Sequence record: SRR20825019_2447
DNA length: 35,710 bases
Direction: 5' to 3' (one strand)
The notes below the pieces were generated by a model, which ran no database searches, had not been told where the DNA came from, and saw only the letters and a list, made by a program, of their open reading frames with translations. Positions 551 to 21,534 of this stretch are shown piece by piece (position 1 is the first letter of the stretch; each line of letters opens with the position of its first letter). The position numbers and the translations under genes were made by a program.

Positions 551-2911
551 TCAATGACCATGCGCCAGCGTGCCCTTCGCCACCTGCTCGCCCGCCGGTT
601 CACCGCCCGATGGGCCGTCTTTGACCTGATGGCCGTTCAAAAGGCGCAGCGCATTGGCCACGACGAGCAGCGATACACCCACATCAGCCGCGATCGCGCC
701 CCACATCGAGGCCATGCCGAACGCTGTCAGCCCAACGAAAAGCGCTTTCGTCGCGAGCGAGAGGCCGATATTCTGGCGGATGATGCTGATCGTGCGGCGC
801 GAATGGCCTATGAGCCACGGAATCCTGCCGATGTCGTCGGTCATAAGCGCGATGTCCGCCGTCTCGATGGCTGCATCGGAACCGACCGCGCCCATGGCGA
901 TGCCGTAATGAGCTCGCGCCATGGCTGGGGCGTCGTTCACTCCGTCGCCGACCATCGCCACCATCTCGTGCGACGCAACCAACTTCTCGATCGCCTCGAC
1001 CTTGTCTTCAGGCAGAAGCTCGGCGCGCACCTCGTCGATACCGACCTCGGCGGCGACCGCGCGTGCGGTGCGTTCGTTGTCACCGGTCAGCATGACTATG
1101 GTCTTGACGCCTTGGGCGTGCAGTCGCGCCACGATGCCCTTGGCGTCGGGGCGAATGCGGTCGCGCAGTTCGAGCAAGCCGAGCACTCCGCCGTCGTCGC
1201 CCACGACGACCATGGTCGCGCCCGCAGCTTCGATCCGCTCACGCAGGTCGGCGGGGATCGCTTCGGCAACCCCCTTCTCGGCGGCGAAGCGGTCGGAGCC
1301 GAGCCAGACCGCGTGGCTCCGAAAATGGCCTTCGAGGCCGCGGCCCGGCACCGTGCGGGTATCCTCGGCGGCAGTCACTTGCGAACCGGCGCGGTCCAGA
1401 ACGGCGCGCGCTAGCGGGTGCGAGGAGCGCGCCTCGAGCGATGCGGCGACGGCGAGCAGATCGGCCTCCGACGTACCTCCGAGCGGATACACGGCGGCCA
1501 CCTCGGGCTTGCCTTCTGTGATCGTACCGGTCTTGTCGAGCGCTAGAGCCGTGGTGCGCGCCGGCGCCTCGACATAGGCGCCACCCTTGATCAGCACGCC
1601 GCCCCGCGCCGAGGCGGTGAGCGCCGCAACGATGGAGACCGGCGTCGATATCACCAGCGCGCAGGGGCAGGCGATGACCAAAAGCACCAGCGCGTTGTAG
1701 AACCAGAAGCTCCAAGCCCCGCCCGCAATGAGTGGCGGCAGCAACGCGATTGCGAGCGCCAGCGCCATCACGGCGGGAGTGTAGACACGGGCAAACCGCG
1801 TCACCCACTGCTCCACCTCGGCGCGGCGGGAATGTGCGTCCCCCACCATGCGGACAATCTTCGCGAGCACCGTGTCGGACGCAACCTTCGTGGCCCGCAC
1901 TGTCAGCGTGCCCTCACCGTTGATCGTGCCGGCATAAACCTCGTCGCCCGGTCCCTTGGGGACAAGCGCGCTCTCGCCCGTGATCGGCGCCTGATCGACC
2001 GCACCCGCGCCGTCCGTCACCTCGCCGTCGAGTGGGACGCGATCACCACCACGCACAACGAATCGGTCGCCCACGGCAACCCGTTCGGCCGGCACGACCG
2101 CTTCGACCCCGTCGTCGCGGATCACCCGCGCCGAGGGCGGGGCGAGATCGAGCAACGCCGCGACGGCATTGCGCGCACGCCCCACGCTCCAGCTTTCTAG
2201 ATAGAGCGAAAGCGCGAAGAAGAAGGCCACGGTCGCCGCCTCGAAGAACTCGCCGAGCCCGATCGCGCCGGCGACGGCGACTACCATCAAGAGGTTCATG
2301 TCGGGCGAGACCCTGCGGGCCGATGACCACGCCTTGGGCGCGACGAGCCAGACACCGAACAGGATCGCCAGGCCGAATAACGTCACCTCGGTCAGCGGCA
2401 TCGGCGCCTCGCCATGGCCGGCGAACAGCCCGAGCGCGCCACCCAGGCCCGTCTCGACGATGTGATAAAGGAACCCCGCCGCCCAGAAGCCGCCGCTCAG
2501 CGCCGTGAACCGTCCCTGCCGCAGCAGATGCGCGGCCCGGTCGGCCTCGGCATTGTCCGCATCCCACGGACGGGCGCTCATGCCCGTGCCGGCAACCGCC
2601 TCGAGAATGCGATCGTCGGAGGCATCGCCGGCCGTGTCGAGCACCGTCATGCGCCCGTTGATGACGTCGAAGGCCAGATGTTCGGGCCCGCCGACTTCAG
2701 GCCCAACAACCTTTTTCAGAATTGACACCTCCTCGGCGCAATCCAGGCCGGTTACCAAGAAACTGCGACCGGATACTTCTCCCAGTGAAGTCACCATACC
2801 GTGGTTGGTACTGCAGCACCTGTCCACGCCATCATCATTGCGGCCAGGCTTGTGACTGCATTGACCGCTCGCATTGTCAGAGCAGTAAGTTTGTCTCGAG
2901 TGTTCTTGCAT
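551..2911 (-). CDS. cadA: Heavy-metal translocating P1B-type ATPase, Zn/Cd/Pb (CadA/ZntA-like)
   Basis: TGES, CPC, DKTGT, HP and GDGVNDAP motifs; Lys in TM7 (ATKAL) and ADVG in TM8, typical of P1B-2; HMA-like GLDCAEE domain and Cys/His-rich N-terminus. Confidence 0.93.
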   Translation of the reverse strand: MQEHSRQTYCSDNASGQCSHKPGRNDDGVDRCCSTNHGMVTSLGEVSGRSFLVTGLDCAEEVSILKKVVGPEVGGPEHLAFDVINGRMTVLDTAGDASDDRILEAVAGTGMSARPWDADNAEADRAAHLLRQGRFTALSGGFWAAGFLYHIVETGLGGALGLFAGHGEAPMPLTEVTLFGLAILFGVWLVAPKAWSSARRVSPDMNLLMVVAVAGAIGLGEFFEAATVAFFFALSLYLESWSVGRARNAVAALLDLAPPSARVIRDDGVEAVVPAERVAVGDRFVVRGGDRVPLDGEVTDGAGAVDQAPITGESALVPKGPGDEVYAGTINGEGTLTVRATKVASDTVLAKIVRMVGDAHSRRAEVEQWVTRFARVYTPAVMALALAIALLPPLIAGGAWSFWFYNALVLLVIACPCALVISTPVSIVAALTASARGGVLIKGGAYVEAPARTTALALDKTGTITEGKPEVAAVYPLGGTSEADLLAVAASLEARSSHPLARAVLDRAGSQVTAAEDTRTVPGRGLEGHFRSHAVWLGSDRFAAEKGVAEAIPADLRERIEAAGATMVVVGDDGGVLGLLELRDRIRPDAKGIVARLHAQGVKTIVMLTGDNERTARAVAAEVGIDEVRAELLPEDKVEAIEKLVASHEMVAMVGDGVNDAPAMARAHYGIAMGAVGSDAAIETADIALMTDDIGRIPWLIGHSRRTISIIRQNIGLSLATKALFVGLTAFGMASMWGAIAADVGVSLLVVANALRLLNGHQVKDGPSGGEPAGEQVAKGTLAHGH

Positions 2912-2942
2912 GACCCAGCCTCGTTTTCCCGATAGTGCGGAT

Positions 2943-2973
2943 TATGTAATTGCTACAGCGACTAGAGCTTCAA
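2943..2973 (-). promoter_or_regulatory. MerR-type (CadR/PbrR/ZntR-like) promoter-operator for the ATPase
   Basis: Minus strand TTGAAG-CTCTAGTCGCTGTAGCAAT-TACATA: -35, 19-bp spacer carrying the dyad, -10; about 30 bp upstream of the ATG at 2911. Confidence 0.8.
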
Positions 2974-3078
2974 GAGGAAAATCGCACTTGTTTAACACGC
3001 TTCATCCGGTCGTACTCGATCAGGCCAGTCCATCTTTTTAGGATAGGTCGTTCGCAGCGCGATAGCTTGCCTAGACAT

Positions 3079-5739
3079 TCAGAAGTGAAGAGAAATATCC
3101 CGCCTGTTTGAAATACAAACGGCAATTTCCTCGGCGATGTTATCAGGCAGACGGGTTTGTCCGCGCAGGCCGATCGTATCGGCGATGGCTCGATCATATT
3201 CCTCGATCTGCGGGCGCAGTTGATCGATTGCCCCCTCACGCCAAGTAACTTCCTTTTCAAATAAGACGACAGCTTTTGCCATACCCTCACGCGCCCAATT
3301 TGCATCAGGCGACTCATTCTTGAATTCCCGCTTTACCTTATACAATTGACTTCGGATTTGGCTCGTACCTGATATCTCGGCCAATGAGGCTATGGCTTTA
3401 TTGATGTTATCAACTGTTGACGTCGCCATTCCGGATTGGACGAGGAGACTCAACCCCCGGAACTGGGGAGCGGCATTTTTTAATCGTCCTGTATCCGCCA
3501 ACAAAATCATGGCCGTTTTTACAGGTTCATATGCGTCATCGACACTACGTCGAAAAATTTTCCGTGCGTTGTTTTCTCGTTCCAAAACCGATGAAAACTC
3601 TTCATGCATCGCACTCCATTCGGTCGGGATTTGGGCCATCAGTTCTTCACGGCGGATTTTCAGTCGAGCTCTATCGTCTCGCAGGTCGTTGAGTTCTTCC
3701 TCTGTTTCAGCGCGTTGGCTCTGCGTGATCGCGATATTTAGTTTCGAAACGGCATCATCGATCCGGCGAATGTCGCTTTCGACACCGCGCACGCGAGACA
3801 GAACGGGGCGGTAGAACACCGCCGCTTCTGCGACCTCAACGTAACCCTGCTTGATATTCTGCATGATCGCGAACGCACGCTCTGCGGCGGTCAGCCCTCT
3901 TCGAAAATCGACGCGTAGTTCTTCAGGGAGAGTGGAAAGGTCCGCTCTTCGCATCCGCTCGATGGCGGAGCGGATTTCGGCACCGTCGCTTTCGAACTTT
4001 CGTGCGACGAAATTTTCCATACAGACCTGCAGCCGTGGATTTGTCGTAGGTGGAGCGTATTCCGACAGCAACAGATTTCTGTTGGGAAGGTAATTAACCA
4101 GCACCGGAAATATGAAAACGAGGCCAACAGCCACGAGTTGGAGGGCGATGAATGGAATGACCCCCTTATAGATCTCCGTTGTTTTGATGCTTGGAGGAGT
4201 GACACCACGCAGATAGAATAGCGCGAAGCCGAACGGCGGCGTCAGAAAAGACGTCTGGATCACCAACGCCAACATCACACCGAGCCAGAGCGCGCTGACA
4301 TTGGCGGCTGGGTCCGCAAGGATAATTGGTGCAATGATTGGCACGACAACGACTGTTATCTCGATGAAATCGAGAAAAAATCCCAGTATGAATATGACCA
4401 GCATAACAACGGCGAACTTGTTCCAGAAGCCACCGGGTATGGAGGCTAGGAAATCCTTCACCAAGGCTTCGCCGCCAAATGCGCGGAAAGCCGCGGTGAG
4501 CATTACCGCGCCGAGCAAAATTGCGAACACCATCGCCGTGGTCTTCGTAGTTTCCTCAACCACGTATTTCAGTGTCCGGTCCTTCTTCAGCGTACGCCAT
4601 CCGCTCCAACCAACTGCGTAAACCAGAACGGCCGAGGCGATGCCCGCGAGCGTTACCCCCAAAACGTTCTGAGCAGACTCAATTTTCCGCAGGTTCACAT
4701 CAAACAGGCTGATAACGATCCAGATAGCGCACGTCGCCAAGGCGGCTAACAAGACTGGCCAATAGGCCCGCCGTTCTCCCTCGCAGAGACGATATCCGGC
4801 CATTACCGTTGCACCAGCAGCGCCGATTGCCCCCGCCTGGTTGACTGTTGCCACTCCCGACATGATCGAACCCAGAACCAGTAAGATCAGGGTCAGTGGC
4901 GGGAACAAGGCGAGCAATGTCCTGCCCACCAATCTGCGAGCGTCAGCCCCTGGAAGATTCGATGCAGGAGCCATGTCTGGGCGAATCGCGGCGACAACGA
5001 CCTGATAGAGAATGTACAGGCCGACCAACAACAGCCCCGGGACGAGCGCCCCCATGAACATGTCACTGACACTGGCAGATGCCACGTCGAACTCACTCGG
5101 CATCATCAGCTCGCCGCTGGCGACCTTGTAGAGCGACTGGCGCTCTTGGTTCGCTTTGTATACGGCAGTGGTCAACTGGTGATTGAGGATAATCAGCACG
5201 ATCGACGGCGGGACGATCTGCCCGAGTGTGCCGGTCGCAGCAACGATACCGGTTGCCATCTGCTTCGAGTAGTTTGTCCGGAGCATAGTTGGCAGTGAGA
5301 TCATCCCCATGGCCACGACTGTGGCGCCGATAACACTGGTCGTTGCGGCGAGAAGCGCGCCGACAAGCACCACCGATATACCCAATCCACCGCGAAACGA
5401 TCTGAAAAGCTGGGACATCGCCAGCAGCAGGTCCTCTGCGATCTTCGAGCGTTGCAGCATAAGCCCCATGAAGATGAACAACGGGATCGCGATCAAAACG
5501 TCACTCTCGTCTGACCTGTAGATTCGGCGCAGGTTGGTGACACCTGCCGACAGCCATTCCCCGGGCGTCCCCCCGTGTACGAAGTATGCGTTGGGATCGT
5601 CGGCCAGCAACTGACCCGCGAGGGCCGCCACGGCAATCGACATGATTGCTGCACCGGGTATGGCAAGCGCGACCGGGTATCCCGCACCAAGAGCGAGACA
5701 AAGGAGGGCAAGCAACAATACAAGAAGAAAGGGCTCCAT
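3079..5739 (-). CDS. dctM: TRAP transporter large permease (DctM) with ~330-aa soluble C-terminal extension
   Basis: AIPLFIFMG, GTLGQIVPPS, ILGFFLDFIEI and QTSFLTPPFGFALFYLRG motifs; hydrophilic helical tail after LVNYLP. Confidence 0.9.
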   Translation of the reverse strand: MEPFLLVLLLALLCLALGAGYPVALAIPGAAIMSIAVAALAGQLLADDPNAYFVHGGTPGEWLSAGVTNLRRIYRSDESDVLIAIPLFIFMGLMLQRSKIAEDLLLAMSQLFRSFRGGLGISVVLVGALLAATTSVIGATVVAMGMISLPTMLRTNYSKQMATGIVAATGTLGQIVPPSIVLIILNHQLTTAVYKANQERQSLYKVASGELMMPSEFDVASASVSDMFMGALVPGLLLVGLYILYQVVVAAIRPDMAPASNLPGADARRLVGRTLLALFPPLTLILLVLGSIMSGVATVNQAGAIGAAGATVMAGYRLCEGERRAYWPVLLAALATCAIWIVISLFDVNLRKIESAQNVLGVTLAGIASAVLVYAVGWSGWRTLKKDRTLKYVVEETTKTTAMVFAILLGAVMLTAAFRAFGGEALVKDFLASIPGGFWNKFAVVMLVIFILGFFLDFIEITVVVVPIIAPIILADPAANVSALWLGVMLALVIQTSFLTPPFGFALFYLRGVTPPSIKTTEIYKGVIPFIALQLVAVGLVFIFPVLVNYLPNRNLLLSEYAPPTTNPRLQVCMENFVARKFESDGAEIRSAIERMRRADLSTLPEELRVDFRRGLTAAERAFAIMQNIKQGYVEVAEAAVFYRPVLSRVRGVESDIRRIDDAVSKLNIAITQSQRAETEEELNDLRDDRARLKIRREELMAQIPTEWSAMHEEFSSVLERENNARKIFRRSVDDAYEPVKTAMILLADTGRLKNAAPQFRGLSLLVQSGMATSTVDNINKAIASLAEISGTSQIRSQLYKVKREFKNESPDANWAREGMAKAVVLFEKEVTWREGAIDQLRPQIEEYDRAIADTIGLRGQTRLPDNIAEEIAVCISNRRDISLHF

Positions 5740-5744
5740 GGGAT

Positions 5745-6818
5745 CTACGGCCCCTCCCTGGTCGCGGGATGGACGGTCCCTGCTACCGCATCACAATTAC
5801 GTCCGCCGGGTTCCCCACGACAGTCGGCTACCGCATCAAAAAAAGTGCCGACAAGCTCGACCAGCATCGTGATAGCGAACACCGCGATAAACACAGTCAT
5901 CAAATAGAAGACGTACAGGCCGTTGCCGATGCCCTCGATCTCAAAGGTCAGCAGAGCGCTGTTGATGATAGCTGCTTTCCCCGAGGTCCCGACAATCAGG
6001 ATCAGCCAACAGAACGGCATTCCCAAAAGCACAGCGCCGCATGCATTGACGACGCTTCTGGATCTAAGACCTAAGGCCGTATAAAGAACGTCGATCCGTA
6101 CGTGCCCCTCCTCACGCAGGGCGTATGCGCAGCCTATCAGAAACAGCGGCGCGTACCAGAAACGGACCAAGTCCGCCATGTAGTCTTGCTCATAGGAAAA
6201 GACAAAGCGGGAGATAACCAGCAGCAACTCGGCAACTACGATCAGTAGGGAAAGCCAGGTCACGCCGATCGAACGCGTAATTGAAGCAATGATGATTGCG
6301 ACCCCGACGAGGGACATATGTACGTAACCCCCACGGAATTCTGCTCTCATGAGCTGCTTGAACAGCTCGTCCCCGGCCATCGCGGCAAGCAGATTCTCGC
6401 CCCGCAGGAACGCAAGACTGAAGTCGACCAGGCCGATCAGCAGGACCGACCAGAAGGCAGTGCGAATCAGGAAGGAATTGATGCGGACGATCCGCTCGCG
6501 CTCCTCGCGCAGAAGGCGAAACCGGTCCAAGACCAAGTACGACGCGACAAAAAGAACAGCGATGCCGTAGAATCCGGCCTGAATCATCGAGGAGATATCT
6601 GCGGTTTCACCCGTTACCCCGGCAGGCCCCGGCCATCCGCGCCAATAGGTCAGATAATTATTGAATAGAAAGGCAACAAGAACGGCGAGGCTGCCCCAGC
6701 CGAACAGCCGAGTGAAAATAGCAAGACATATCCTGGAACGCCTCGCATTGTGATCTGGCTCAAAATGAGCTCTGTTCCAAACAGTTTTTGTTTGCGCGTC
6801 GTAATTCTCAAGATTCAT
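5745..6818 (-). CDS. dctQ: TRAP transporter small permease (DctQ) with N-terminal membrane extension
   Basis: AYALREEGHVRIDVLY DctQ motif in the C-terminal half; 357 aa with extra hydrophobic segments; 5 bp from dctM; ATGA overlap with the upstream ORF. Confidence 0.85.
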   Translation of the reverse strand: MNLENYDAQTKTVWNRAHFEPDHNARRSRICLAIFTRLFGWGSLAVLVAFLFNNYLTYWRGWPGPAGVTGETADISSMIQAGFYGIAVLFVASYLVLDRFRLLREERERIVRINSFLIRTAFWSVLLIGLVDFSLAFLRGENLLAAMAGDELFKQLMRAEFRGGYVHMSLVGVAIIIASITRSIGVTWLSLLIVVAELLLVISRFVFSYEQDYMADLVRFWYAPLFLIGCAYALREEGHVRIDVLYTALGLRSRSVVNACGAVLLGMPFCWLILIVGTSGKAAIINSALLTFEIEGIGNGLYVFYLMTVFIAVFAITMLVELVGTFFDAVADCRGEPGGRNCDAVAGTVHPATREGP

Positions 6819-7384
6819 TCTGATGGAAACCTGGCTGGCATAACCCCGACGATCGTCCAGATCACCTCTATGGAAACTACATCATTGCCCCCCCGAATAC
6901 CCGCACCGAAGACAACTCCACTCTCTGAGATCGCCCACAGCATGTAATCACCGACAATCGTGTGCATTTGGTTCATGTAGGCGAGCAAAGTCGGTGACGG
7001 ATTGGGCGATTTTACCGCTTCGCCATCGCCCATACCGCTACTGCCATCACACGAAGCACGGTTCTCATGATAGAGGCGGCGGCCTGACCGTATGATCGTT
7101 CCGTAGAAGGCGGCGGGATTTTGCCCGTCTTGATGCTCCAGCGGAACGCCTTGATGCATGAACGTCCAAAAGCGCTTCATTCTCTGTTGCATGTGAGGGC
7201 TCATGCTCTTAGGCACCCACATGCCGCGAGGCATCCTGCATGGGTTAAATGTATCCCGAGAGTCAGGCAACCGTGATGCTTGGGCAGAAACTTTAGTTCC
7301 GGCGACTGATTGGCCGATCATGAGAAAGGAAGCCGCTAGGAGACGCTCTGCCGTTATTGATCGAATATTCCTTCTATGCAGCAC
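6815..7384 (-). CDS. Degenerate cytochrome c-like exported protein lacking CxxCH (possibly a decaying pseudogene)
   Basis: Signal-peptide-like N-terminus. GRRLYHENRASCDGSSGMGDGEA matches the class I pattern GxxLYxxNCASCHGxxGxGDG with C>R and H>D. DYMLWAISESG is followed by GIRGG where MPAF is usual. Confidence 0.6.
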   Translation of the reverse strand: MLHRRNIRSITAERLLAASFLMIGQSVAGTKVSAQASRLPDSRDTFNPCRMPRGMWVPKSMSPHMQQRMKRFWTFMHQGVPLEHQDGQNPAAFYGTIIRSGRRLYHENRASCDGSSGMGDGEAVKSPNPSPTLLAYMNQMHTIVGDYMLWAISESGVVFGAGIRGGNDVVSIEVIWTIVGVMPARFPSE

Positions 7385-7537
7385 GGTGTTCCTCCGACGC
7401 CCCTTGAGACCCGATTTGGTTTAAAGTTGGTTCGGCGCACTATTTTTCCTAAAACTGAGTGGTTTCAAACGTGCCCCTCTCCCGCAGTGACGATGTTGAC
7501 AAGGTCCAATTTTCCACTTCCATAGAAGCGCTCTGCA

Positions 7538-7568
7538 AGCCTACACTCTCTAGTCACTATAGCTTCAA
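7538..7568 (-). promoter_or_regulatory. MerR-type promoter-operator for the cytochrome-like/dctQ/dctM unit, overlapping the divergent regulator leader
   Basis: Minus strand TTGAAG-CTATAGTGACTAGAGAGTG-TAGGCT, 19-bp spacer, dyad CTATAG-TGA-CTAGAG; 12 bp from the regulator ATG at 7581. Confidence 0.85.
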
Positions 7569-7580
7569 GGGGGTTTCACT

Positions 7581-8000
7581 ATGGCCGTTGAGCTTTCAAT
7601 CGGTCAGCTTTCCGAAACAACGCGGTGCAAGGTTCCAACCATTCGGTACTACGAACAGATTGGGATGATGCCTGCGGTTAGTCGCACTAGTGGCAATCAA
7701 CGGCGATATGGGCCGGAGCACGTTAAGAGACTCCAGTTTATTCAACATTGCCGCGATTTGGGCTTTCGTCAGAACGCCATAATCGAGCTTTTGGCCCTTA
7801 CAGCTCAACCAAGTCAAGGATGCGAGGTTGTAACAGAAATAGCCAAATCCCACCTCGAAGAGATCAACCGTCGCATCGCTCGATTCTCAGGACTTAAACT
7901 AGAGCTCGAACGAATGATCGACTCCTGTAGCAGCGTAAATATTTCTGAGTGCCGTATTATCGAGGGTCTTGCGGATACTTCAAACGCTGATGCTTCCTAA
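7581..8000 (+). CDS. MerR-family divalent-metal-responsive regulator (CadR/PbrR/ZntR-like)
   Basis: SIGQLS...TIRYYEQIG...RTSGNQRRY HTH; Cys at the start of the dimerisation helix (QGCEVV) plus C-x7-C loop (SCSSVNISEC), the three-Cys divalent pattern. Confidence 0.92.
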   Translation: MAVELSIGQLSETTRCKVPTIRYYEQIGMMPAVSRTSGNQRRYGPEHVKRLQFIQHCRDLGFRQNAIIELLALTAQPSQGCEVVTEIAKSHLEEINRRIARFSGLKLELERMIDSCSSVNISECRIIEGLADTSNADAS

Positions 8001-8078
8001 CCCACTTGGCAGCATATCCATTAATCGGTCATCCGAGTCTGCGCTCGATAGAGCAAATCGGTATTTACGGTTCTGGCG

Positions 8079-9440
8079 TCAAATCCCCAAAACGGCTTTC
8101 GGTAGTATGGTTACCAGTGCGGGAAATAACAGCACCGCGGCTATCATTAAAAGCTGGATCGCAACAAGTGGGATGACGCCACGGTAAATCTGCGCCATTC
8201 GAATGCTGTCAGGAGCCGCGCCTTTGAGAAAGAAAAGCGCAAAACCAAAGGGTGGGGTCAGAAAGGAAGTCTGAAGAACCAAGGCAACGAGAGCGCCAAT
8301 CCAGAGCCGGGCCAGTTGTTCTGATCCAACATATGCAGAAAAATCAAGCTGGCTTATTGCCGGGTAAAGAATTGGCAATGAGACTAGAGTGATCTCGATC
8401 CAATCGATGAAAAAGCCTAGCACAAATAAAATAATCAACACGACGGCCAGCACACCAAAATCGCCGATCGATAGATCTTCGAACAAGCCAATCGCTATGT
8501 CGTCTCCTCCATAAAACCGGAACACCAACGAGAAGATTCCAGCTCCTAGGACCACGAAAAACACCATTCCGGTGATCACCATCGTGCGAACCAAGGCTTG
8601 ACGTAGTAGGGCAAGATCAAACCCGCGGTATAAAAAGATCATCGCACCGCCACCGATGGCCCCGACAGCCGCCGACTCTGTCGGCGACACCCACCCCGCG
8701 ACGATAGAGCCAAGCACCAATGCTATGAGTCCGACCGGCAGAACCAGGCTTCGAATAAGATAAATAAGTATTGAGCGTCCATTTTCGGACGGCATGGCTG
8801 CCGCACCGGAACGTGGGCGCAGCACATCAATTACAATAAAATAACAAATGAAGGCCCCCGCCAAGCACAGTATAGGCAAGATTGGCGCTAGAAACATACT
8901 GCCAATCGTCAACTCCATTGCATCCGACAAAAAGAACAACATAATCGCTGGCGGTGCTATCACCCCAAGCGTCCCGGCGGCCGCGATAACGCCGCTGGCG
9001 ACTTCAGGACGATAACGCTGGGCCATCATGGTTGGTAAGGCAGCGGCGGCGATAGTAGCGACTGAAGCCCCAATCACGCCGGCAAGTGGCGCCAGCAGCA
9101 GGCCAATCAAGATCACCGATACGCACATGCTCCCGGGGGCGCGGCCTAAAATACGCTGTAAACACAGGAGCAGTTCTCGCGCAGCGCCACTGACTTCAAG
9201 CGCAACGCCCATAAATAACAGCATCGGTACAGCCGGATAGGTTAGATTCTCACCGATAGACATGTAAATCTTACTCGGAATGAGGAAGAGCGACTGAACC
9301 GGATACTCACCAATAACAACACCGAGCAACCCAAAGCCAACTCCAACCCCAGCAAGAATAGCCCCAACGGGAAAGCCCGACATTAGTAGGAGGGCAAGAA
9401 CTATCAGCATGAGATGGGGGAGGTAATCCACCAAGATCAT
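8079..9440 (-). CDS. dctM: TRAP transporter large permease (DctM), standard length
   Basis: AVPMLLFMG, GTLGVIAPPA, LGFFIDWIEI, QTSFLTPPFGFALFFLKG. Confidence 0.9.
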   Translation of the reverse strand: MILVDYLPHLMLIVLALLLMSGFPVGAILAGVGVGFGLLGVVIGEYPVQSLFLIPSKIYMSIGENLTYPAVPMLLFMGVALEVSGAARELLLCLQRILGRAPGSMCVSVILIGLLLAPLAGVIGASVATIAAAALPTMMAQRYRPEVASGVIAAAGTLGVIAPPAIMLFFLSDAMELTIGSMFLAPILPILCLAGAFICYFIVIDVLRPRSGAAAMPSENGRSILIYLIRSLVLPVGLIALVLGSIVAGWVSPTESAAVGAIGGGAMIFLYRGFDLALLRQALVRTMVITGMVFFVVLGAGIFSLVFRFYGGDDIAIGLFEDLSIGDFGVLAVVLIILFVLGFFIDWIEITLVSLPILYPAISQLDFSAYVGSEQLARLWIGALVALVLQTSFLTPPFGFALFFLKGAAPDSIRMAQIYRGVIPLVAIQLLMIAAVLLFPALVTILPKAVLGI

Positions 9441-9940
9441 AGCTCGCTTCCTCGATCAATCGTCGGAAAGGCAAAACGGTAGATACCCGCCAAGAACAGG
9501 AGCAGAGCGCAGACTGGCAGCGCAGACTTGACTATCCACCGGGCGGACAGCCCCAAAGCTGCGCGAGACCCTTCTCCCTGAACAAAAGAAAGCCAAGTCA
9601 TTTCCGCGCCAAACCAGAATAATATAAGACAAAACGGAAGAAGGAGCACCGTCAACAAGATACGCTCGAGCCTTCTTTTTATACGGGCAGGGAGGCGTTC
9701 ACGCAGAATATCAACTCGGACATGGCGCTCTTGAATATAGGTGTATCCAATGGCGAACATCACGCAACCGAAGAAGAAATGCCAGGCAAGCTCCTGCAAT
9801 AAGGTCGAGCTGAAATGAAAAAGCCGCCGCCCGACGATGTCGTAGCCCGACACAAGAATGAGTGCTGGCAAGAAAATCAATGCTGCAGCGGCCCCACCTA
9901 GCTCGACGAACCGTCTACAAGCAGATAACCAACCCTGCAT
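9437..9940 (-). CDS. dctQ: TRAP transporter small permease (DctQ)
   Basis: LQELAWH...GYTYIQERHVRVDIL motif, four hydrophobic segments, 4-bp overlap with dctM. Start taken at ATG 9940; GTG 9958 is possible. Confidence 0.88.
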   Translation of the reverse strand: MQGWLSACRRFVELGGAAAALIFLPALILVSGYDIVGRRLFHFSSTLLQELAWHFFFGCVMFAIGYTYIQERHVRVDILRERLPARIKRRLERILLTVLLLPFCLILFWFGAEMTWLSFVQGEGSRAALGLSARWIVKSALPVCALLLFLAGIYRFAFPTIDRGSEL

Positions 9941-9978
9941 CGCTTTCTGCCCCCTCACCTAAATCTGCCGCAATGAGA

Positions 9979-10009
9979 AATCTAGTACCTATAGCTACTA
10001 TAGGTTCAA
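9979..10009 (-). promoter_or_regulatory. MerR-type promoter-operator for the second dctQM pair
   Basis: Minus strand TTGAAC-CTATAGTAGCTATAGGTAC-TAGATT, 19-bp spacer; perfect dyad ACCTATAG-N3-CTATAGGT at 9987-10005. Confidence 0.85.
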
Positions 10010-10616: not shown

Positions 10617-12446
10617 TCACCGCTCACGGCCCTGCGATCTACCTTGCTGCTTTGATTTCTTTTTTGAGCTGCGAGCCGGACCTGTTCCTGGCTTGCGTGA
10701 AATATCGCGTTCGATAACATTCTCAACAACCCAACTGTTCCGTTCGACAATTTTCCCGTTTGGGAGACGCACCGGCGTTGTTCCCGTATGCTCAATTCGG
10801 ATTGCCGCACCCGGCTTCGGATTGGCTCTAATCATCGCCTGCTTAAGATCAACGCCCCATATTGTGTGGCGTTTCCCATTATCGCGTTCAACCGTCACGA
10901 AGTAGCTTTGGCTGCTACCCGGTTTGTTCTCAAACGGTGCGCTGCCCTGCTCAATAAAACGAACCTCGGCCTTCGCAATCTCCGCCGACTTACGATCCTG
11001 TTTCCGGGTTCTTGCAATGCCGTTGCCAGCGTTGGCGCGGGTACGTGGCGCGCCTGGCGCTATAGTACCAACGCCCAGAAACAGGTTCATCATCTCCCTG
11101 TTTGCGACCACAATCACAAAGGCCAAGGGGTCAGTGTGGGCTTCTGTCAGGAGGAACGCTTTCCAGTTCCGAGCCGTGAGCCCTCGCACACGTGGCACCA
11201 GTGAACGCTTGCGGGCAATATAGCGGTCCCATAACGCGGTTCCGCCTGATGGCAACGCCAGCAAGGGCCGTTGTCTATATCCTAAATTCTCCCCGCGCTT
11301 AGATCCCCTGTCAGGGCCGACAGGACGTTCGACGGCGTTAGGGCCTAAAAATGGCCCTAACCGTTCTTCCAGCTTCTTCTTGCTGGCATTACGGTCCAAC
11401 GAAGAGGCTTTGATAGTGTTCTGTCCGCCAAGGTCGGCAAAGACCACGCCGGCTCCACGCTTCTTGAGCTGAACACCTGATTCCCTCAGCGCTGTGTGAA
11501 GTTCACGCCAGGTCGCACTTTTCTGCAGGGCCTCGATCAGATTGGCTTTGTTGCCGCGGATCCAATGTTCAAAATTATCTTTGTCCGGAGAAGGGCCATT
11601 CTTTGAGGTTTCTTCGCTTACAGGATCCTCTCCTGTTCCGTTCGGCCCTCCGAACGCTCCAAGACGCTTCTCAAGTCCTCGAAGGCTTGCCGACCTGTCG
11701 AATGACGAGGCTTTCATGGTGTGCCGGCCATCCAGATCAGCGAAGACCAAGCCAGCACCGCGCCGTTTCAACACCACACCAGATTGCTGCAGGCTGGCAT
11801 GCAAAGCCGCCCAGGTGCGGCTCTGCTGCAGAATTTTCTTCAGTGGCTCTTTGTTCTCGATCATCCAACGCTGAAAGCTGACTTCCCACGTCTCACTTTC
11901 ATAATCCAGAGCCGCTGGCGACAGCCCCTCTGGATCCTCGCCTCGATCAGACATCCCCCGATCGATCGCCAGCCCAAATTGCGTCTCCATCGCACGGCTG
12001 GTTTTCTCCAGGACCTTGAAGTCCCGATAGGGCGTGTGAACCCGGCCCGTCACCGGGTGAATTTTATTAAACGCGACGTGCATATGAAAATTGTCAGTGT
12101 TGATATGCGTACCGGCAACATATTGATGGTCGTCGAATCCCAACGCGTCGGCGTAGCTCTGAGCTATTTCTTTCAGGTTATCTGGCGTCAGTGATTCCCG
12201 CTCGCCGTCTCTGAACGACACTATCAAATGATAGGTCCAGTCGCCCTTTCCGCCCTTCAACTGACGGACGGCTTCAATCTCGGCTAATGCCGCTTCAAAA
12301 CTCTCTGGGCTATCTCCGGCAGCGCAATTTGCCATCCAAAGTTGATCGAGTTTCTCGCCTGTTTCCTTTGCTGCAGCGATATATTCACCCAGGCGCGTGA
12401 AGTCTTCGCCTCTATCGCCACTCTTGCTAACTTTTTTGGCGATCAT
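10617..12446 (-). CDS. traI: MOBP-family relaxase (TraI-like) with a duplicated middle domain
   Basis: MIAKKV start (ATG 12446), RLGEYI (candidate catalytic Tyr), YHLIVSFRDGE, THINTDNFHMHVAFNKIHP (HxxTDxxHxH); basic SQGRER tail. Confidence 0.9.
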   Translation of the reverse strand: MIAKKVSKSGDRGEDFTRLGEYIAAAKETGEKLDQLWMANCAAGDSPESFEAALAEIEAVRQLKGGKGDWTYHLIVSFRDGERESLTPDNLKEIAQSYADALGFDDHQYVAGTHINTDNFHMHVAFNKIHPVTGRVHTPYRDFKVLEKTSRAMETQFGLAIDRGMSDRGEDPEGLSPAALDYESETWEVSFQRWMIENKEPLKKILQQSRTWAALHASLQQSGVVLKRRGAGLVFADLDGRHTMKASSFDRSASLRGLEKRLGAFGGPNGTGEDPVSEETSKNGPSPDKDNFEHWIRGNKANLIEALQKSATWRELHTALRESGVQLKKRGAGVVFADLGGQNTIKASSLDRNASKKKLEERLGPFLGPNAVERPVGPDRGSKRGENLGYRQRPLLALPSGGTALWDRYIARKRSLVPRVRGLTARNWKAFLLTEAHTDPLAFVIVVANREMMNLFLGVGTIAPGAPRTRANAGNGIARTRKQDRKSAEIAKAEVRFIEQGSAPFENKPGSSQSYFVTVERDNGKRHTIWGVDLKQAMIRANPKPGAAIRIEHTGTTPVRLPNGKIVERNSWVVENVIERDISRKPGTGPARSSKKKSKQQGRSQGRER

Positions 12447-12810
12447 CGAGGCGCTTCCTGGTGGGCTGCAGCTCACCCCTGATGCTCAAAACAACATCAC
12501 GAATGATCCCCTTCGTCGTCTCAATTTCTGCAGCTATGCGGTCCAGCCGGGCGTCCAAATCGGATTCCTCTTTATCATCCAGAGCCATCTTGAATAAATT
12601 GCCGAGCCGGGCGAGATCGGCGTTGAGCTGAAGCAGATGCTGAATATTCGCCCACCCCGCGCGAGCTTCTGGCGACGGCAGCGGGACGCCCATAATTAAT
12701 CGTCTTATAAGCTCAGATGCAGAGAGTCCGGTCTGTGCCGATAAGACAGACAGCCTTTCGCGCTCGACCTCTGTCAAATAGCTCTTGGCTACGTGGCGAT
12801 CCGAAGCCAT
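12427..12810 (-). CDS. Relaxosome accessory RHH protein (TraJ/MobC-like)
   Basis: RHH-like AKSYLTEVERERL...GLSASELIRRLI and LNADLARLGNLFK motif; overlaps the relaxase start. Confidence 0.8.
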   Translation of the reverse strand: MASDRHVAKSYLTEVERERLSVLSAQTGLSASELIRRLIMGVPLPSPEARAGWANIQHLLQLNADLARLGNLFKMALDDKEESDLDARLDRIAAEIETTKGIIRDVVLSIRGELQPTRKRLDDRQKS

Positions 12811-13850: not shown

Positions 13851-15635
13851 TTACCCAACTTCATGGACCATCGCGACCGATGGTGCAGGAATGGATGCGC
13901 GCTTGCGCAAGGCTCGATTTTGAAAATAGAGAAGCTGAACGCCACGGATCGGCCGGCTGCCCGCCACAAGCAGAATCGCTTCACCTGGCGACATGCCGCC
14001 GAAGCATTTTTTAAGCCATTCGCCGGGTAAGGACCGAGACAGCCAGTTCTTTCTTATCCGCCCCAAACGCATCGCTTCGTCTGGAGTCAGCAGTGATCGT
14101 CCTGTCTCAGTCTCGCTTTGACTTACTGACCCACGCCCACCAATAGAGCCCGAAGCCGAACGACGCGACTGAATGACAGTTGCTCTACCCGCCATATCCG
14201 ACACGGTTTTCGCTGTCTCATACCGGTTCGGCGCGAACGCAATCTGAACATGACAGTTGCTCGTGATTGCCTCTTGTTGCCCATAGATTCCCTTGAGCAT
14301 CTGCAAATCTTGCACGAACAGAAATGCTTTCACGCCATAGCCGGCGAGATAGGCAAGAGACGTTTCGAACACATCAATTTTCCCGAGGGATGTGAATTCA
14401 TCCATCAGCAAAAGGATCTTTCTTTCGGCAATTCGGCCGTCGAGTGTTTCCGTCAGTCTCCGCAGGATCATCGCAAAGATGATCCGCGTAATGGGCCGAA
14501 GCCGTTCCAGATCCGAGGGCGGTATAACTAGGTAGAATGACGTTTTTTGATCACCGGCCAAATCGCTGATCGCGAAATCCGATGCTTCTGTATTGCGTGC
14601 CAGGATTGGATCGGACAGGAGACTGAGCGACGCCAACGCCGTTGAATGAACGCCGCTTCGCTCTTTCCAGTCCTTCAACCGCATAATCTTCGCTGCAGCC
14701 TCGACTTCGCGGTCGATTACCGGATCACCGTGATCGAACGTCAACATTGCATCGAGCAATGCATCCATCGGATCTTCATTTTCTGATTCACCTTCGTCCG
14801 CACTTTGCGAAAGGAAACCGCGAACATCATTGAGCGACGCAGGGTGCCCCACACACTGATGGTTCCTGAACAAGACATGAAGGATTGCGCCGGTAAGCCA
14901 AGACGCGCCTTCACGCATCCAGTGGTCTTTAAGCCCCTTCCCCTCTGGGTCGATCAGGGTAAGAGCAATGTTCTGCGCGTCCTGGATCTCACGACCGGAG
15001 CCAAGGCGTATTTCGGCCAATGGATTGAATCGCGCAAATGGGGCCAGCGCCGTTGGATCGAACCGAATTATCCGCTGACCTATCTGGGCTCTATAGCCAG
15101 CAGTGAGTTGATAGTTTTCACCCTTAATGTCTAGAATGATCGCCGTGTCAGGCCATGAAAGAAGCGCTGGAATAATTAATGAGACCCCCTTCCCTGATCG
15201 TGTCGGGGCGAAGCACAAGACATGCTCCGGGCCATCATGTCGCAAGGGTTTTGCCCTGCGAAACCGCCTCTTCCATCCCCCAACTTGTATCCCGCGCTTA
15301 GCAAAAAGGCCGGCCTTGCGCAGATCGGAAACACGCGCCCAGGACGCCGTCCCATGAAGGGCTTTCGCCGCGAACTCACCGCTTTTTGTTTTTGATCCAG
15401 CCTGGGGCAACAAGATCGACCCGAGAGCCATAATCAATGCGCCGACGATACCGGCATACAGAACGGAGTTATCCATTCCGGCTGGCAGCCCACCACTTTT
15501 CTTTAGGTTGGAAAGCAGCCATTCCCACCAACGCTTGTCAGCGGGATCAAAGCCGACCAGTAACCACCATTGATACAAAATGCTGGCAACGACGGCGCTA
15601 AAGATGAGCACGAGAAAGACGCGATGACGAACCAT
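13851..15635 (-). CDS. virD4: Type IV coupling protein VirD4/TraG
   Basis: Two N-terminal TM segments, LHGTASWA, APTRSGKG Walker A, LDIKGEN, LLMDEFTSLG Walker B, LLTPDE. Confidence 0.95.
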   Translation of the reverse strand: MVRHRVFLVLIFSAVVASILYQWWLLVGFDPADKRWWEWLLSNLKKSGGLPAGMDNSVLYAGIVGALIMALGSILLPQAGSKTKSGEFAAKALHGTASWARVSDLRKAGLFAKRGIQVGGWKRRFRRAKPLRHDGPEHVLCFAPTRSGKGVSLIIPALLSWPDTAIILDIKGENYQLTAGYRAQIGQRIIRFDPTALAPFARFNPLAEIRLGSGREIQDAQNIALTLIDPEGKGLKDHWMREGASWLTGAILHVLFRNHQCVGHPASLNDVRGFLSQSADEGESENEDPMDALLDAMLTFDHGDPVIDREVEAAAKIMRLKDWKERSGVHSTALASLSLLSDPILARNTEASDFAISDLAGDQKTSFYLVIPPSDLERLRPITRIIFAMILRRLTETLDGRIAERKILLLMDEFTSLGKIDVFETSLAYLAGYGVKAFLFVQDLQMLKGIYGQQEAITSNCHVQIAFAPNRYETAKTVSDMAGRATVIQSRRSASGSIGGRGSVSQSETETGRSLLTPDEAMRLGRIRKNWLSRSLPGEWLKKCFGGMSPGEAILLVAGSRPIRGVQLLYFQNRALRKRASIPAPSVAMVHEVG

Positions 15636-15637
15636 TG

Positions 15638-16585
15638 TTAGCGTCCACCATCAACAGTTTGACCGTCCTTGATCACGTACCGGTCATTCCGCGCCTCATA
15701 TATGTCTGAGACCCTTCTAAACCCATCCGAAGAGCGCTTGATCTGAATGATCACATCAACAAGTTCTTGAAGGAATTCCGGTATGCGTGGCATCGAGGCA
15801 CCTGACCAGGCCACGTTCTGATCGAATTTTCGGTGGATAACCTGCTGGGGGCTTTCGGCGTGAATCGTACACATAAAGCCAGTAACGCCGGAGTTTAACG
15901 CTGCCAGCGCAGCAAAGGCGTTTTGGGTGCTTATCTCCCCCAACACGATATGATCCGGCGTAATACGCATCGTGTGGTCATACAGTTCACGCCACCCCAC
16001 CATCCCGGCGCCTTTTTGCTCCTCACGGGACGCCAGAAGCCCGATACCATCGAAGAACCGCCCTAGGTGGAGTTCGGGGGTATCTTCCATGGCGACGACG
16101 CGCCGATCTGGTGGAAGCGTTGCCAACAACATATTCAATAGGGTCGTCTTTCCAGTGTTGGTCGCTCCAGAGACGATAATGTTTGCCTCTTTCGAGACGG
16201 CCGTCTCGATGTAGGCCTGTGTCTCTTCCGAAACGCCCCACTGGTCCCATTGCGGCTCAAATGGATGTTTGCAGCGCACAGCTAAACTGACACCGCTCTG
16301 GGTTGAGTTTCCAACAAGACACTCGAAGCGATGACCGCCCGATAAAACACAGGAGAGCTTCACGTTCTCCTCGCCATCAAAAACAAGACCGTTCTTGTTG
16401 GCTAGAGACCGGGCAATTGATTCAATTGCACCGCGCGAAAGCTCATCGTCTTCGAATTCCTCCTTGCCGACTCCTCGACGTTCCACAACGACGTGGTGTG
16501 GTCGCGAAATGCGAAGTTCGACTGTTTTAGGATCCGCGTAATACCGGGAAAGCGGCGCTAGAATTCGCTCACTGAGACGATCCAT
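15638..16585 (-). CDS. virB11: VirB11-family traffic ATPase
   Basis: SGATNTGKTT, MEDTPEL, RITPDHIVLGEI, TIHAES. Confidence 0.92.
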   Translation of the reverse strand: MDRLSERILAPLSRYYADPKTVELRISRPHHVVVERRGVGKEEFEDDELSRGAIESIARSLANKNGLVFDGEENVKLSCVLSGGHRFECLVGNSTQSGVSLAVRCKHPFEPQWDQWGVSEETQAYIETAVSKEANIIVSGATNTGKTTLLNMLLATLPPDRRVVAMEDTPELHLGRFFDGIGLLASREEQKGAGMVGWRELYDHTMRITPDHIVLGEISTQNAFAALAALNSGVTGFMCTIHAESPQQVIHRKFDQNVAWSGASMPRIPEFLQELVDVIIQIKRSSDGFRRVSDIYEARNDRYVIKDGQTVDGGR

Positions 16586-16591
16586 GATCGC

Positions 16592-18724: not shown

Positions 18725-19797
18725 TAGTAATCCTCCATCTTCGCTATGTACCAGTCCGTCCTCGGTCTGATTTGAAGGCGTGTGCCTTGCGGCACTGTGA
18801 TTATGGGATTCAGCTCAAGTGTCCGTTCCAGCACACCAGCGCTGATTTCCCCTAGCCGCTCCGACAATTCCGAAGAGCCTGATTCAAGACCAGATTGGAG
18901 GCCATTGCTATCTTCATCATCAGACGCGCCTGCAACGGCGCTGGATAAGGCTACACCCGTCGAAATGCCCGTCAGCAAGAAAGCAGTGCCATAGCGCTCT
19001 CCGAAGCGATCATCTACTTCGCCAGAAGTACCGGCCCTGCCCTGCACGTCCGCGAGAAGGCTACCCAGGTCTCGAATTTCCGCTCGATGTCCCGCGAGCA
19101 AGATGCGCTCACACTCAACAGCCAATCGGCTTGAGCCAAAATCCTCGGGCTCTGAGTAATTGCAAATTATGCGGGATCCTTTTGGCACCAGCACATTGCG
19201 CCCGTGGTATCCATAGACATCGCGGGAAACCTGCACATTGACTGTGCCGGTAGATCCCCCGCCAATCTGGCTGTTGATCCCGGTTTCCAAGACAACAGAA
19301 ATGTACCTATCGGCCGCCAGGATCCTACTGTTATCGACCGGATATCCCGACGTTCTGCGATCACCTTCGTAATCCGAGGTCTTAATTGAGTGCGTCGGTG
19401 CCAGTGCGCTTTCAACGGGTTTCATAGGCGCCGTCGAGACTGGTTTTGCAATGTTGATCGGCCGATCTGGCATAACCAAATCGAGGCCGCGAACAGAGCG
19501 CCTTGGCGGTGCATCATACAGAGCCGTCAGAGCGCTCACCAACGGATCTGGTGGCGGTGACGGAGCCTCCTTCACGACAACTGGTTCGGCCTTCGGCCGG
19601 GGGGCCTCCCGTATGACGATGGGCGGAAATTTTGGTGGTGGTGCCGGTCTTACTATTTCGACCGGCACCGTCGGCAATGCATACGCCGAGTGATCGTCTG
19701 CCGGTAATTGGAATTCGCTTCGCTCGACTACACCGGTCGCGCACAAACCGTTTAGGGTGAGGCCAACTGCGAGCGCAATATCACAGAATGCGCTCAT
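18724..19797 (-). CDS. virB10: VirB10/TrbI core complex protein
   Basis: Pro-rich linker, VLETGINSQ, VSRDVY, LVPKGSRI, DVQGRAGTSGEVDDRF, PIITVPQGTR. Confidence 0.92.
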   Translation of the reverse strand: MSAFCDIALAVGLTLNGLCATGVVERSEFQLPADDHSAYALPTVPVEIVRPAPPPKFPPIVIREAPRPKAEPVVVKEAPSPPPDPLVSALTALYDAPPRRSVRGLDLVMPDRPINIAKPVSTAPMKPVESALAPTHSIKTSDYEGDRRTSGYPVDNSRILAADRYISVVLETGINSQIGGGSTGTVNVQVSRDVYGYHGRNVLVPKGSRIICNYSEPEDFGSSRLAVECERILLAGHRAEIRDLGSLLADVQGRAGTSGEVDDRFGERYGTAFLLTGISTGVALSSAVAGASDDEDSNGLQSGLESGSSELSERLGEISAGVLERTLELNPIITVPQGTRLQIRPRTDWYIAKMEDY

Positions 19798-19798
19798 G

Positions 19799-20851: not shown

Positions 20852-21534
20852 CAGGATCTTTCCTTCACAACCATGTCGGTAATCAAAATGCCAAGCGGAT
20901 TGATATAGCGATCAGCTTCCCGCACTTCGTTGACCCGAGTGATCATTGTCAAATACGCTTGAAGGTCTTTGCGGCCGACCTCAACGCCCTTACGCGTGTC
21001 TATCTGCTCGAACTCGACCGACATTAAATATCCGCCTGATTTACCTTCTACCTTGCTCGCCGTTCTCACATGAATTCTGCGCACGAGCCCATTTTTGAGA
21101 GCCGTTGCCATCTCCTTCGTATCAAGCCGATTTTGGCGGAGCTGTTTCCAGAATCTCTTTTCCGTCATGAGCATCGCTTCTCGATGACGCGATTCTTGCG
21201 TTGGTTTGTCTACTTCCAGAACTAGCCGAACATAGGTTTGCGCTTGGCTTTCGAGATAGTTGACGAACCCCTCCACTTGTTCCGTTATGGGCTCAACCCG
21301 GTAAAGGCGGTCGTCCGGACCATAGGTGCGAACAAGCGCTATCTGCGTTTCTTTGAGCGGGGCTAACTCCGCAATCCCATTCACTAAAAGAATCACGGCA
21401 ATTACGAGCGCGACGTTCGTCATCACAGACAGTCTCAATACGAATGCCAGACGACGGTGTGCTATTTCGAAGCGGTACGGATCCGACGCGATGGAGGAAC
21501 CGTGCCCGCCAACCCCCGTTATACTTTCTGCCAT
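20851..21534 (-). CDS. virB8: VirB8-family inner membrane protein
   Basis: Single TM followed by LAPLKET, YVRL, and C-terminal RYINPLGILIT; start at ATG 21534. Confidence 0.85.
   Translation of the reverse strand: MAESITGVGGHGSSIASDPYRFEIAHRRLAFVLRLSVMTNVALVIAVILLVNGIAELAPLKETQIALVRTYGPDDRLYRVEPITEQVEGFVNYLESQAQTYVRLVLEVDKPTQESRHREAMLMTEKRFWKQLRQNRLDTKEMATALKNGLVRRIHVRTASKVEGKSGGYLMSVEFEQIDTRKGVEVGRKDLQAYLTMITRVNEVREADRYINPLGILITDMVVKERS

Follow-up and report, generated by a model that had tools for sequence, protein, structure and literature searches.

Why should promoters of the kind recognized by metal sensors stand in front of genes for permeases of the tripartite ATP-independent periplasmic (TRAP) type? 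The question is raised by positions 551 to 10009 of a 35,710-nucleotide (nt) stretch of DNA from sequence record SRR20825019_2447 (hereafter the window), which is a conjugative plasmid with metal-resistance cargo at one end. The cargo holds a heavy-metal ATPase gene, a merR gene, orf189, and two pairs of dctQ and dctM genes, and all of it lies on the minus strand, merR being the sole exception. We consider it probable that a MerR-family sensor here switches on a Zn/Cd/Pb pump together with two DctQM permeases that lack the binding protein DctP, and that one of the two, DctQ2M2, serves as an ion-coupled, binding-protein-independent carrier in the response to divalent-metal stress.

The original prediction, made from the letters alone, had placed three matching minus-strand promoters in this segment, and a pattern search recovered all of them. 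Promoter P1 (2943 to 2973) has the −35 element TTGAAG, the dyad CTCTAG-TCG-CTGTAG, and the −10 element TACATA; P2 (7538 to 7568) has TTGAAG, CTATAG-TGA-CTAGAG, and TAGGCT; and P3 (9979 to 10009) has TTGAAC, CTATAG-TAG-CTATAG, and TAGATT. Read on the minus strand, they are TTGAAGCTCTAGTCGCTGTAGCAATTACATA (P1), TTGAAGCTATAGTGACTAGAGAGTGTAGGCT (P2), and TTGAACCTATAGTAGCTATAGGTACTAGATT (P3), and they share one build, in which a −35 TTGAA(G/C) abuts a 15-bp CTnTAG-N3-CTnnAG dyad that is followed by 4 bp and a TAnnnT/A −10, giving a 19-bp spacer in each case. The composite pattern TTGAASCTNTAGNNNCTNNAG, searched with up to one mismatch, matched the window three times, always on the minus strand and always without a mismatch (2953 to 2973, 7548 to 7568, and 9989 to 10009), against an expectation of none, since it matched in 0 of 100 dinucleotide-preserving shuffles of the window (mean, 0.00). 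The dyad alone, CTNTAGNNNCTNNAG, picked out only these three sites in the 35.7 kb, scoring five matches because two of the sites are palindromic on both strands; 0.12 matches were expected, and none of 100 shuffles reached five. Only P3 is a perfect palindrome, the half-sites of P2 having one imperfect position and those of P1 two. A sigma-70 scan with spacers of 16 to 18 bp detected none of P1 to P3, which MerR-type spacing would lead one to expect, and terminators and ordinary promoters were not above chance between positions 300 and 10300.

The promoters are closely placed with respect to the genes. From the P1 dyad, it is 41 nt to the ATG of the ATPase gene (551 to 2911, minus strand). From the P3 dyad, it is 30 nt to the GTG start of dctQ2 (9437 to 9958, minus strand) or 48 nt to the ATG at 9940, the probable start, which lies behind GAGGGGG; dctM2 (8079 to 9440, minus strand) comes next, with a 4-bp overlap. 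The P2 dyad lies 163 nt from the start of orf189 (6815 to 7384, minus strand), and dctQ1 (5745 to 6818) and dctM1 (3079 to 5739), both on the same strand, then follow with overlapping or abutting stops and starts, the overlap of orf189 and dctQ1 being 4 bp. The claim that both of these promoters precede dctQM units thus holds as it stands for P3, whereas the first gene behind P2 is orf189 rather than dctQ. On the opposite side and strand, merR (7581 to 8000) starts 19 nt from the P2 dyad, which doubles as a merR-divergent operator in the classic divergent MerR layout.

Among the genomes compared, the nearest relatives of the window plasmid are a 94-kb contig of Nisaea denitrificans DSM 18348 (genome G001) and a contig of Nisaea nitritireducens DSM 19540. 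When the whole genomes G001 and G132 were searched, every match to TTGNNN followed by the dyad fell on the plasmid contig (three of three in G001 and four of four in G132). A fourth MerR-type site lies outside the window sequence (G001:C10:18527-18547 and G132:C4:7845-7865), with the dyad CTGTAG-TTA-CTACAG behind TTGAGC or TTGCTC, and the same dyad also adjoins a second, 36%-identical MerR gene in a related locus, L017.

The geometry had been called the signature of CadR/PbrR/ZntR-type activation, and published promoters agree. In the available text of PMC3431237, the footprinted PbrR promoter has its dyad within a 19-bp spacer behind a −35 TTGACT, and cutting that spacer to 18 bp raised transcription both with and without Pb(II). 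A palindrome in a 19- or 20-bp spacer is described, in the part of PMC1526738 open to us, as the signature of the whole metal-sensing MerR branch. The only MerR-like gene in the window encodes a protein of 139 amino acids (aa) with an N-terminal helix-turn-helix and a dimerization helix (PF13411 [MerR_1], 3e-17; PF09278 [MerR-DNA-bind], 1.3e-14; PF00376 [MerR], 3.3e-12). Its best relatives of solved structure are CadR (6jgv, E = 1.3e-20) and PbrR (5gpe, 1.8e-19), the match to the CueR structure being about 10 orders of magnitude weaker. Residues C81, C116, and C124 align with the metal-binding cysteines of CadR 6jgv and PbrR 5gpe, which for CadR we take to be C77, C112, and C119. The regulator had been described as a three-Cys protein; the three ligands are there, but the protein has five cysteines in all.

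The pump behind P1 is a P1B-2 (Zn/Cd/Pb-type) heavy-metal ATPase of 786 aa, with the Pfam domains E1-E2_ATPase (PF00122) and Hydrolase (PF00702) and a CPC motif that can be read in the translation. It scored 514.4 bits with the Cd family model TIGR01512 (cut-off, 313.5) and 587.5 bits with TIGR01525 (cut-off, 346.25), but only 391.1 bits with the Cu-type model TIGR01511, which is below the cut-off of 397. Its DNA is 76 to 78% identical to that of ATPases on Roseobacter-group plasmids.

We therefore propose the following scheme, in which metal induction of P1 to P3 is a prediction from promoter and protein sequence. One CadR/PbrR-like regulator would bind all three dyads, at promoters whose 19-bp spacer would be too long for open-complex formation. 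Its Cys81, Cys116, and Cys124 would hold a divalent soft metal (Zn, Cd, or Pb), and the metal-bound regulator would untwist the spacer and so activate the ATPase gene, the orf189-dctQ1-dctM1 unit, and the dctQ2-dctM2 unit.

What, then, are the permeases? The original prediction had treated both QM pairs as TRAP systems, and this is the part that did not survive, since they are not tripartite. A tblastn search of the window, which did not extend to TAXI-type proteins, found no DctP-like sequence, and although G001 and G132 have 14 matches each to the DctP family PF03480, none of the 14 lies on the plasmid contig in either genome. DctM2 (453 aa) matches the Pfam family DctM (PF06808) over its full length, and DctQ2 (173 aa from the GTG at 9958) matches DctQ (PF04290). 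To place DctM2 among its relatives, we aligned it with three plasmid homologues and used the alignment to scan a set of genomes, one for each species. This gave 600 matching stretches, 480 of them relatives, and the best 80 of the 480 were used. A quick maximum-likelihood tree of 88 rows (the 80 loci, 4 second copies, 3 plasmid loci, and the window), which carries long-branch warnings, put DctM2 in a 45-row clade with a Shimodaira-Hasegawa-like approximate likelihood ratio test (SH-aLRT) value of 99. A dctP gene was found within 3 kb in 0 of these 45 rows and in 32 of the 39 rows of the sister clade, where 5 of the remaining 7 have less than 2.3 kb of upstream sequence; the detector was a hidden Markov model built from 36 DctP sequences of the same loci, and it could miss a very distant binding protein. 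On their sequences, the DctQM pairs of the window are binding-protein-less TRAP-type QM permeases wired into what appear to be metal regulons.

The metal connection is not confined to this plasmid. The metal-context rows of the tree form three subclades (20 rows) and a separate two-row clade, and these 22 rows reduce to 18 distinct units once near-identical ones are collapsed (the window with L010 and L011, L016 with L017, and L001 with L003). The original prediction had called for a search for homologous dctQM loci with the same dyad and with cadA/merR neighbors, and a link between dctQM and metal regulators was present in 16 of the 18 units, which come from other taxa besides the window plasmid. 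A TTGnnn-dyad-N4-TAnnnT promoter heads the dctQM operon in 12 of the 18. The first gene after it is dctQ in the window group, L013, L014 (a variant dyad, read by eye), L018, L019, L024, L061, L020b, and L027b; elsewhere it is an open reading frame (ORF) for a 475-aa protein of unknown function (L020a), a cation diffusion facilitator (CDF) gene (L015), or an ATPase gene (L002). One unit (L016/L017) has merR directly upstream on the same strand, and three (L001/L003, L021, and L027a) have a divergent ArsR-family gene. Neither a two-mismatch scan nor an inverted-repeat search found a dyad before the dctQ genes of L012, L014, L016, L021, L025, L027a, L022, L023, and L026, the L014 variant being visible only by eye.

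Many units share an operon with CDF, ATPase, or LspA genes. A cassette in which an ArsR/SmtB gene diverges from CDF-lspA-dctQ-dctM recurs on conjugative or mobilizable plasmids of Pseudosulfitobacter, Pontibrevibacter, Marinovum, and Ruegeria (L001, L003, L148, and L149; Roseobacter group), and an Antarctobacter plasmid (L002) has the order dyad, ATPase, dctQ, dctM. Recurrent metal-island neighbors include genes for a multicopper oxidase, a PEMT/ICMT-like methyltransferase, DsbB, a DsbA-like thioredoxin, PCuAC, SCO1, and FTR1 fused to cytochrome c. The DctM genes of the metal-context subclades are under strong purifying selection, with ratios of nonsynonymous to synonymous substitution (dN/dS) of 0.06 to 0.18 in five pairs, a sixth pair being saturated. 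Promoter sequence and recurrent gene neighborhood together make control of the QM genes by a metal sensor a well-supported prediction.

Two observations on the relatives can be added here. A 637-aa FTR1-family permease with an N-terminal cytochrome c domain, an arrangement that we take to be the PbrT-type architecture, is encoded beside dyad-dctQM units in L024 (3998 to 5911), L020, and L027. On a Thalassobaculum plasmid (L147; NZ_CP139716.1), a Tn3-family transposase gene interrupts a dctM whose product is 70% identical to DctM2, leaving the C-terminal 260 aa, and the truncated gene adjoins a helix-turn-helix gene and a heavy-metal ATPase gene.

We aligned DctM2 to PpSiaM and read its residues against the available text of PMC9971032, in which Na coordination in the TRAP carrier is through backbone carbonyls. 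The twin prolines of both Na sites, in transmembrane helices 5 (TM5) and 11 (TM11), are kept in DctM2 and likewise in DctM1, and DctM2 also keeps E255, the glutamate that forms the Q-M salt bridge, and D346, the acidic residue of the substrate cavity; DctM2 therefore fits a working elevator carrier, as far as conserved residues can suggest. Both proteins fall below the cut-off of 268.45 bits for the DctM subfamily model TIGR00786 (DctM2, 207.3; DctM1, 253.1). What distinguishes the clade without DctP is a set of positions at the HP-in tip and in TM5 (118, 120, 155, and 165 of DctM2), which read P/A/A/A there versus A/T/S/S in 32 of 32 DctP-linked sisters. P118 and A120 are fixed (16/16 metal rows and 25/25 other rows of the clade), A155 is found in 13/16 and 21/25, respectively, and A165 is found in 15/16 and 18/25. 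These residues adjoin the Na1 site, and S103 and S106 of PpSiaM align with A117 and A120. Changing S106 to S108 to alanine in PpSiaQM abolished transport, according to the text of PMC9971032 available to us.

The second pair has a different history. DctM1 (886 aa; PF06808) has a C-terminal soluble extension of about 330 aa, and DctQ1 (357 aa; PF04290 at residues 198 to 325) has an N-terminal membrane extension of about 190 residues; both extensions are shared by part of the DctM matches among 401 Alphaproteobacteria genomes. DctQ1 is 44% identical to the chromosomal DctQ of G001. Twenty full-length relatives of DctM1 were fetched (47 to 53% identity), one of them cut by a contig end, and in 19 of the 19 informative ones, including the chromosomal G001 copy, dctP lies directly upstream of dctQ. 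In the plasmid copy, orf189 stands in its place, and tblastn found no DctP remnant upstream of dctQ1. DctM1 is changed at 32 of the 276 columns in which 18 DctP-linked relatives (L134 was left out) do not vary, among them the HP-in tip Gly, R79, D187, and N493, compared with 0 to 6 changed columns in 17 rows and 17 in one row of a leave-one-out control. DctQ1 is changed at 9 of 54 invariant columns, compared with 0 to 6 in the controls. Judged by these sequences, DctQ1M1 looks like a recent, divergent, dispensable recruit whose source was an ordinary DctPQM subfamily and whose DctP has been lost. The C-terminal third of dctM1 (3079 to 4080) encodes a helical domain of about 330 aa without a Pfam family that also occurs as stand-alone proteins of 351 to 375 aa in the ESM Atlas, and the N-terminal half of dctQ1 (6240 to 6818) encodes the N-terminal membrane extension that DctQ has in this subfamily of large TRAP proteins.

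The product of orf189 is a periplasmic, cytochrome c-like protein of 189 aa without a Pfam match. Its nearest ESM Atlas clusters are all cytochrome c (score, 0.95), and a search of 5.8 billion proteins returned one near-identical protein. L019 encodes a homologue (42% identity) that is a normal c-type cytochrome with its CxxCH motif intact, but orf189 has NRASCDG where the homologue has NCARCHG and IRGG in place of MPAF, so that the heme Cys, His, and Met ligands are gone. We considered orf189 as a substitute binding protein and found no support for it, the only distant homologue (that of L019) being a c-type cytochrome. The protein has a signal-peptide-like N terminus and a Met/His-rich stretch, and its frame is open and 97 to 98% identical in a related Nisaea record.

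Several findings weigh against the reading that we favor, starting with the limits of the DctP detector and of the tree mentioned above. No NCBIfam equivalog model gives the regulator a score above its cut-off: with the CadR-PbrR model TIGR02047, the best of the metal-regulator models, it scored 103.2 bits (cut-off, 151.45), and the CueR model came close, at 99.5 bits. We therefore call it CadR/PbrR-like rather than a member of that group, and the inducing metal is a prediction. These scores would suit a regulon that is real but answers another signal, such as Cu(I)/Ag(I), Hg(II), or oxidative stress, with the QM pairs serving that response, and copper genes (those for multicopper oxidase, PCuAC, SCO1, and cupredoxin) do occur in many related loci. 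We regard this as quite improbable, given the far closer structural match to CadR and PbrR than to CueR, the presence of the first cysteine of the triad (C81), the Cd/Zn-type score of the ATPase, and the CDF and LspA genes that are the partners in related operons.

A second group of contrary findings concerns the carrier. No Cys or His is conserved in the DctM proteins of the metal subclades, and their conserved Asp, Glu, and Met residues are all shared with the DctP-linked sisters, so that no clade-specific metal ligand and no new soft-metal site is visible. E64 of DctM2 corresponds to PpSiaM D50, through which PpSiaM touches both SiaQ and the binding protein. All 16 metal-clade rows retain it, and 17 of the 25 rows in the other subclade without DctP have lost it; E64 and D173 are common to the metal subclades and the DctP-linked sisters and are lost in that other subclade. 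A periplasmic partner may therefore still be used. In this case, the QM pairs could be importers that work with a DctP encoded elsewhere, for example on the host chromosome, and that take up a protective organic acid or a metal-carboxylate under metal stress. The TRAP systems solved so far are described as strictly binding-protein dependent (PMC9971032, as available), the two host genomes each offer 14 DctP matches, and DctM1 keeps the Thr-rich HP-in tip and the PPS motif of its DctP-linked relatives. We nevertheless think such import unlikely. A dctP gene lies within 3 kb in none of the 45 clade rows but in 32 of the 39 sister rows, and units that travel on plasmids between families would need a matching host DctP each time. 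The hydroxyls of HP-in and TM5 have been replaced in DctM2, DctM1 has departed from its DctP-linked homologues at 32 invariant positions, and the import of metal chelates under metal stress would contradict the efflux genes of the same operons.

The third contrary finding is a natural deletion. The G001 plasmid, which is 98% identical, lacks positions 3198 to 7310 (4.1 kb), so that dctQ1 is gone along with the greater part of both orf189 and dctM1, and a single base differs in its P2 dyad (CTATAT for CTATAG). The deletion (L008, 9972 to 9983) lies at an 8- to 12-bp microhomology ending in GATCAT; of orf189 the opening codons remain, and of dctM1 the final 39. The orf189-dctQ1-dctM1 unit is therefore dispensable. 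Moreover, 2 of the 18 distinct units, L012 and L025, have no metal context; in L012, a 4.6-kb contig, dctQM lies between acyl-CoA dehydrogenase and aminotransferase genes. It could be supposed that the operators are real for the ATPase only, that the dyads before dctQ are relics of a duplicated promoter, and that the QM genes are hitchhiking cargo with no metal role. The G001 plasmid lost the unit with no other change nearby, orf189 has lost its heme ligands, and plasmid metal islands are mosaics that gather unrelated genes. The same promoter-dctQM arrangement, however, recurs in other taxa, in no fewer than 11 further distinct units whose sequences have diverged, and in some units dctQM lies within operons led by CDF or ATPase genes, neither of which would be expected of relics. 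The low dN/dS of DctM and the perfect palindrome of P3, the only one among the three sites, point the same way, and we give this explanation very little credence.

On balance, we keep to the view that DctQ2M2 would work without a binding protein, as an ion-coupled elevator carrier engaged in a divalent-metal stress response. Of the interpretation first put forward for this locus, the promoter geometry, the regulator, and the type of ATPase stand, the link to metals recurs in related units, and the tripartite TRAP label falls away. As for the suggestion that metal-carboxylate chelates or a protective organic acid are moved, none of the findings speaks for import rather than export.

In which direction might such a carrier work? 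A clue comes from the other subclade without DctP, which has 25 rows and varied neighbors. At six loci from different assemblies (L038, positions 3084 to 9368, and L029, L032, L034, L035, and L039), a gene for an HlyD-type adaptor is followed by an ORF of 1,214 to 1,226 aa and then by dctM, with no DctP nearby. The long ORF of L038 encodes an AcrB-family pump (PF00873 at residues 7 to 1023, E = 2e-157) with a C-terminal DctQ domain (residues 1086 to 1211). By Rosetta-stone logic, the AcrB-DctQ fusion and the HlyD-type adaptor suggest that QM modules can act with efflux machinery, a lean toward export that comes from relatives rather than from the window. DctQ2M2 would accordingly most likely move the metal itself or a metal-binding anion outward from the cytoplasm. 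A broader proposal, speculative and somewhat doubtful in our own estimate, is that the DctQM clade without DctP is an unrecognized class of exporters in the inner membrane that arose from TRAP importers. Those in metal islands would be controlled by MerR or ArsR and would pass either a divalent metal or an anion that binds metal from the cytoplasm into the periplasm, and in the sister subclade, the DctQ-AcrB fusion would make a continuous efflux line from the cytoplasm to the outside.

The remainder of the window is in keeping with a conjugative plasmid. It encodes a MOB relaxase (10617 to 12476), a VirB-type secretion system with a coupling protein (13851 to 28855), a RepA-type initiator (30879 to 31769), and ParA- and ParB-like proteins. 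The left flank of the cargo differs between the window plasmid and the G001 plasmid, similarity ending at position 543, 8 nt beyond the ATPase stop codon, and positions 1 to 258 are the end of an ORF that is weakly ABC-permease-like. Pieces of merR, dctM1, dctQ1, dctM2, and dctQ2 that are 99 to 100% identical occur in Logan contigs of four RNA-labeled runs from three studies, and one such contig stops at 9972, just downstream of the P3 −10 element; we draw no inference from these contigs or from their ends, because an assembled contig says nothing about transcription, ends, or levels and may stem from carried-over DNA.

The locus had been thought to be without a described counterpart, and a full-text literature search, with most subscription journals and supplements outside its reach, likewise found no description of DctQM under MerR or ArsR control or in metal operons, nor any paper on an AcrB-DctQ fusion. 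The portions of PMC3141670, PMC6308992, PMC11796062, and PMC5812351 that were available describe no TRAP QM genes in a metal regulon, and a 2018 review of TRAP transporters, in its available portion, does not mention such DctQM genes. The recurrent pairing points to an undescribed role of DctQM in metal resistance. The DctM2 clade never has a dctP gene beside it, is under purifying selection, has spread on plasmids, and appears to be wired to metal sensors, and its relatives include a fusion to a pump of the resistance-nodulation-division (RND) type. TRAP systems are usually regarded as importers of organic acids that depend strictly on a binding protein. If our reading is right, the TRAP fold can also be used in a second way, without a binding protein, and the Zn/Cd/Pb resistance islands of marine Alphaproteobacteria hold a component whose current annotation, as a transporter of C4-dicarboxylates or mannitol, is wrong. 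With its three promoters, single regulator, and naturally occurring deletion variant, the locus would also make a simple genetic system for an elevator carrier without its operator protein.

How does the locus compare with known systems? In czc-type two-step efflux, a CDF protein or a P-type ATPase carries metal to the periplasm and an RND pump carries it outward. With dctQM in CDF and ATPase operons and an AcrB-DctQ fusion in relatives, DctQM might here take the place of the inner-membrane feeder, although the window itself encodes no RND pump. With SiaPQM and DctPQM, the locus shares a DctQ-DctM pair with overlapping genes, the twin-proline motifs, and the Q-M salt-bridge Glu, but it has no dctP gene, the hydroxyls of HP-in and TM5 are replaced, and metal sensors stand in the place of substrate-specific regulators. 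With ZntR/zntA of Escherichia coli, it shares a MerR-family Zn/Cd/Pb sensor, a P1B-2 ATPase, and a long-spacer promoter, whereas ZntR works with a 20-bp spacer (both points as given in the available text of PMC3431237) and has a single target, with no permease genes in its regulon. The closest parallels are PbrR and the PpbrA promoter of Cupriavidus metallidurans pMOL30 and CadR/cadA of Pseudomonas, which share with it a MerR-family activator with a Cys triad, a divergent regulator gene, a P1B ATPase target, and a dyad inside a 19-bp spacer abutting the −35 element (PMC3431237 and PMC1526738, as available). Compared with pbrTRABCD, the window has no PbrT, PbrB, PbrC, or PbrD, and LspA (PbrC type) and FTR1-cytochrome c (PbrT type) occur in related loci only. 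Unlike the PbrR and CadR systems, the locus has one regulator gene for three operators, two of which would drive DctQM pairs without DctP. The regulatory device is thus a textbook one, and the cargo and its clade are the new part.

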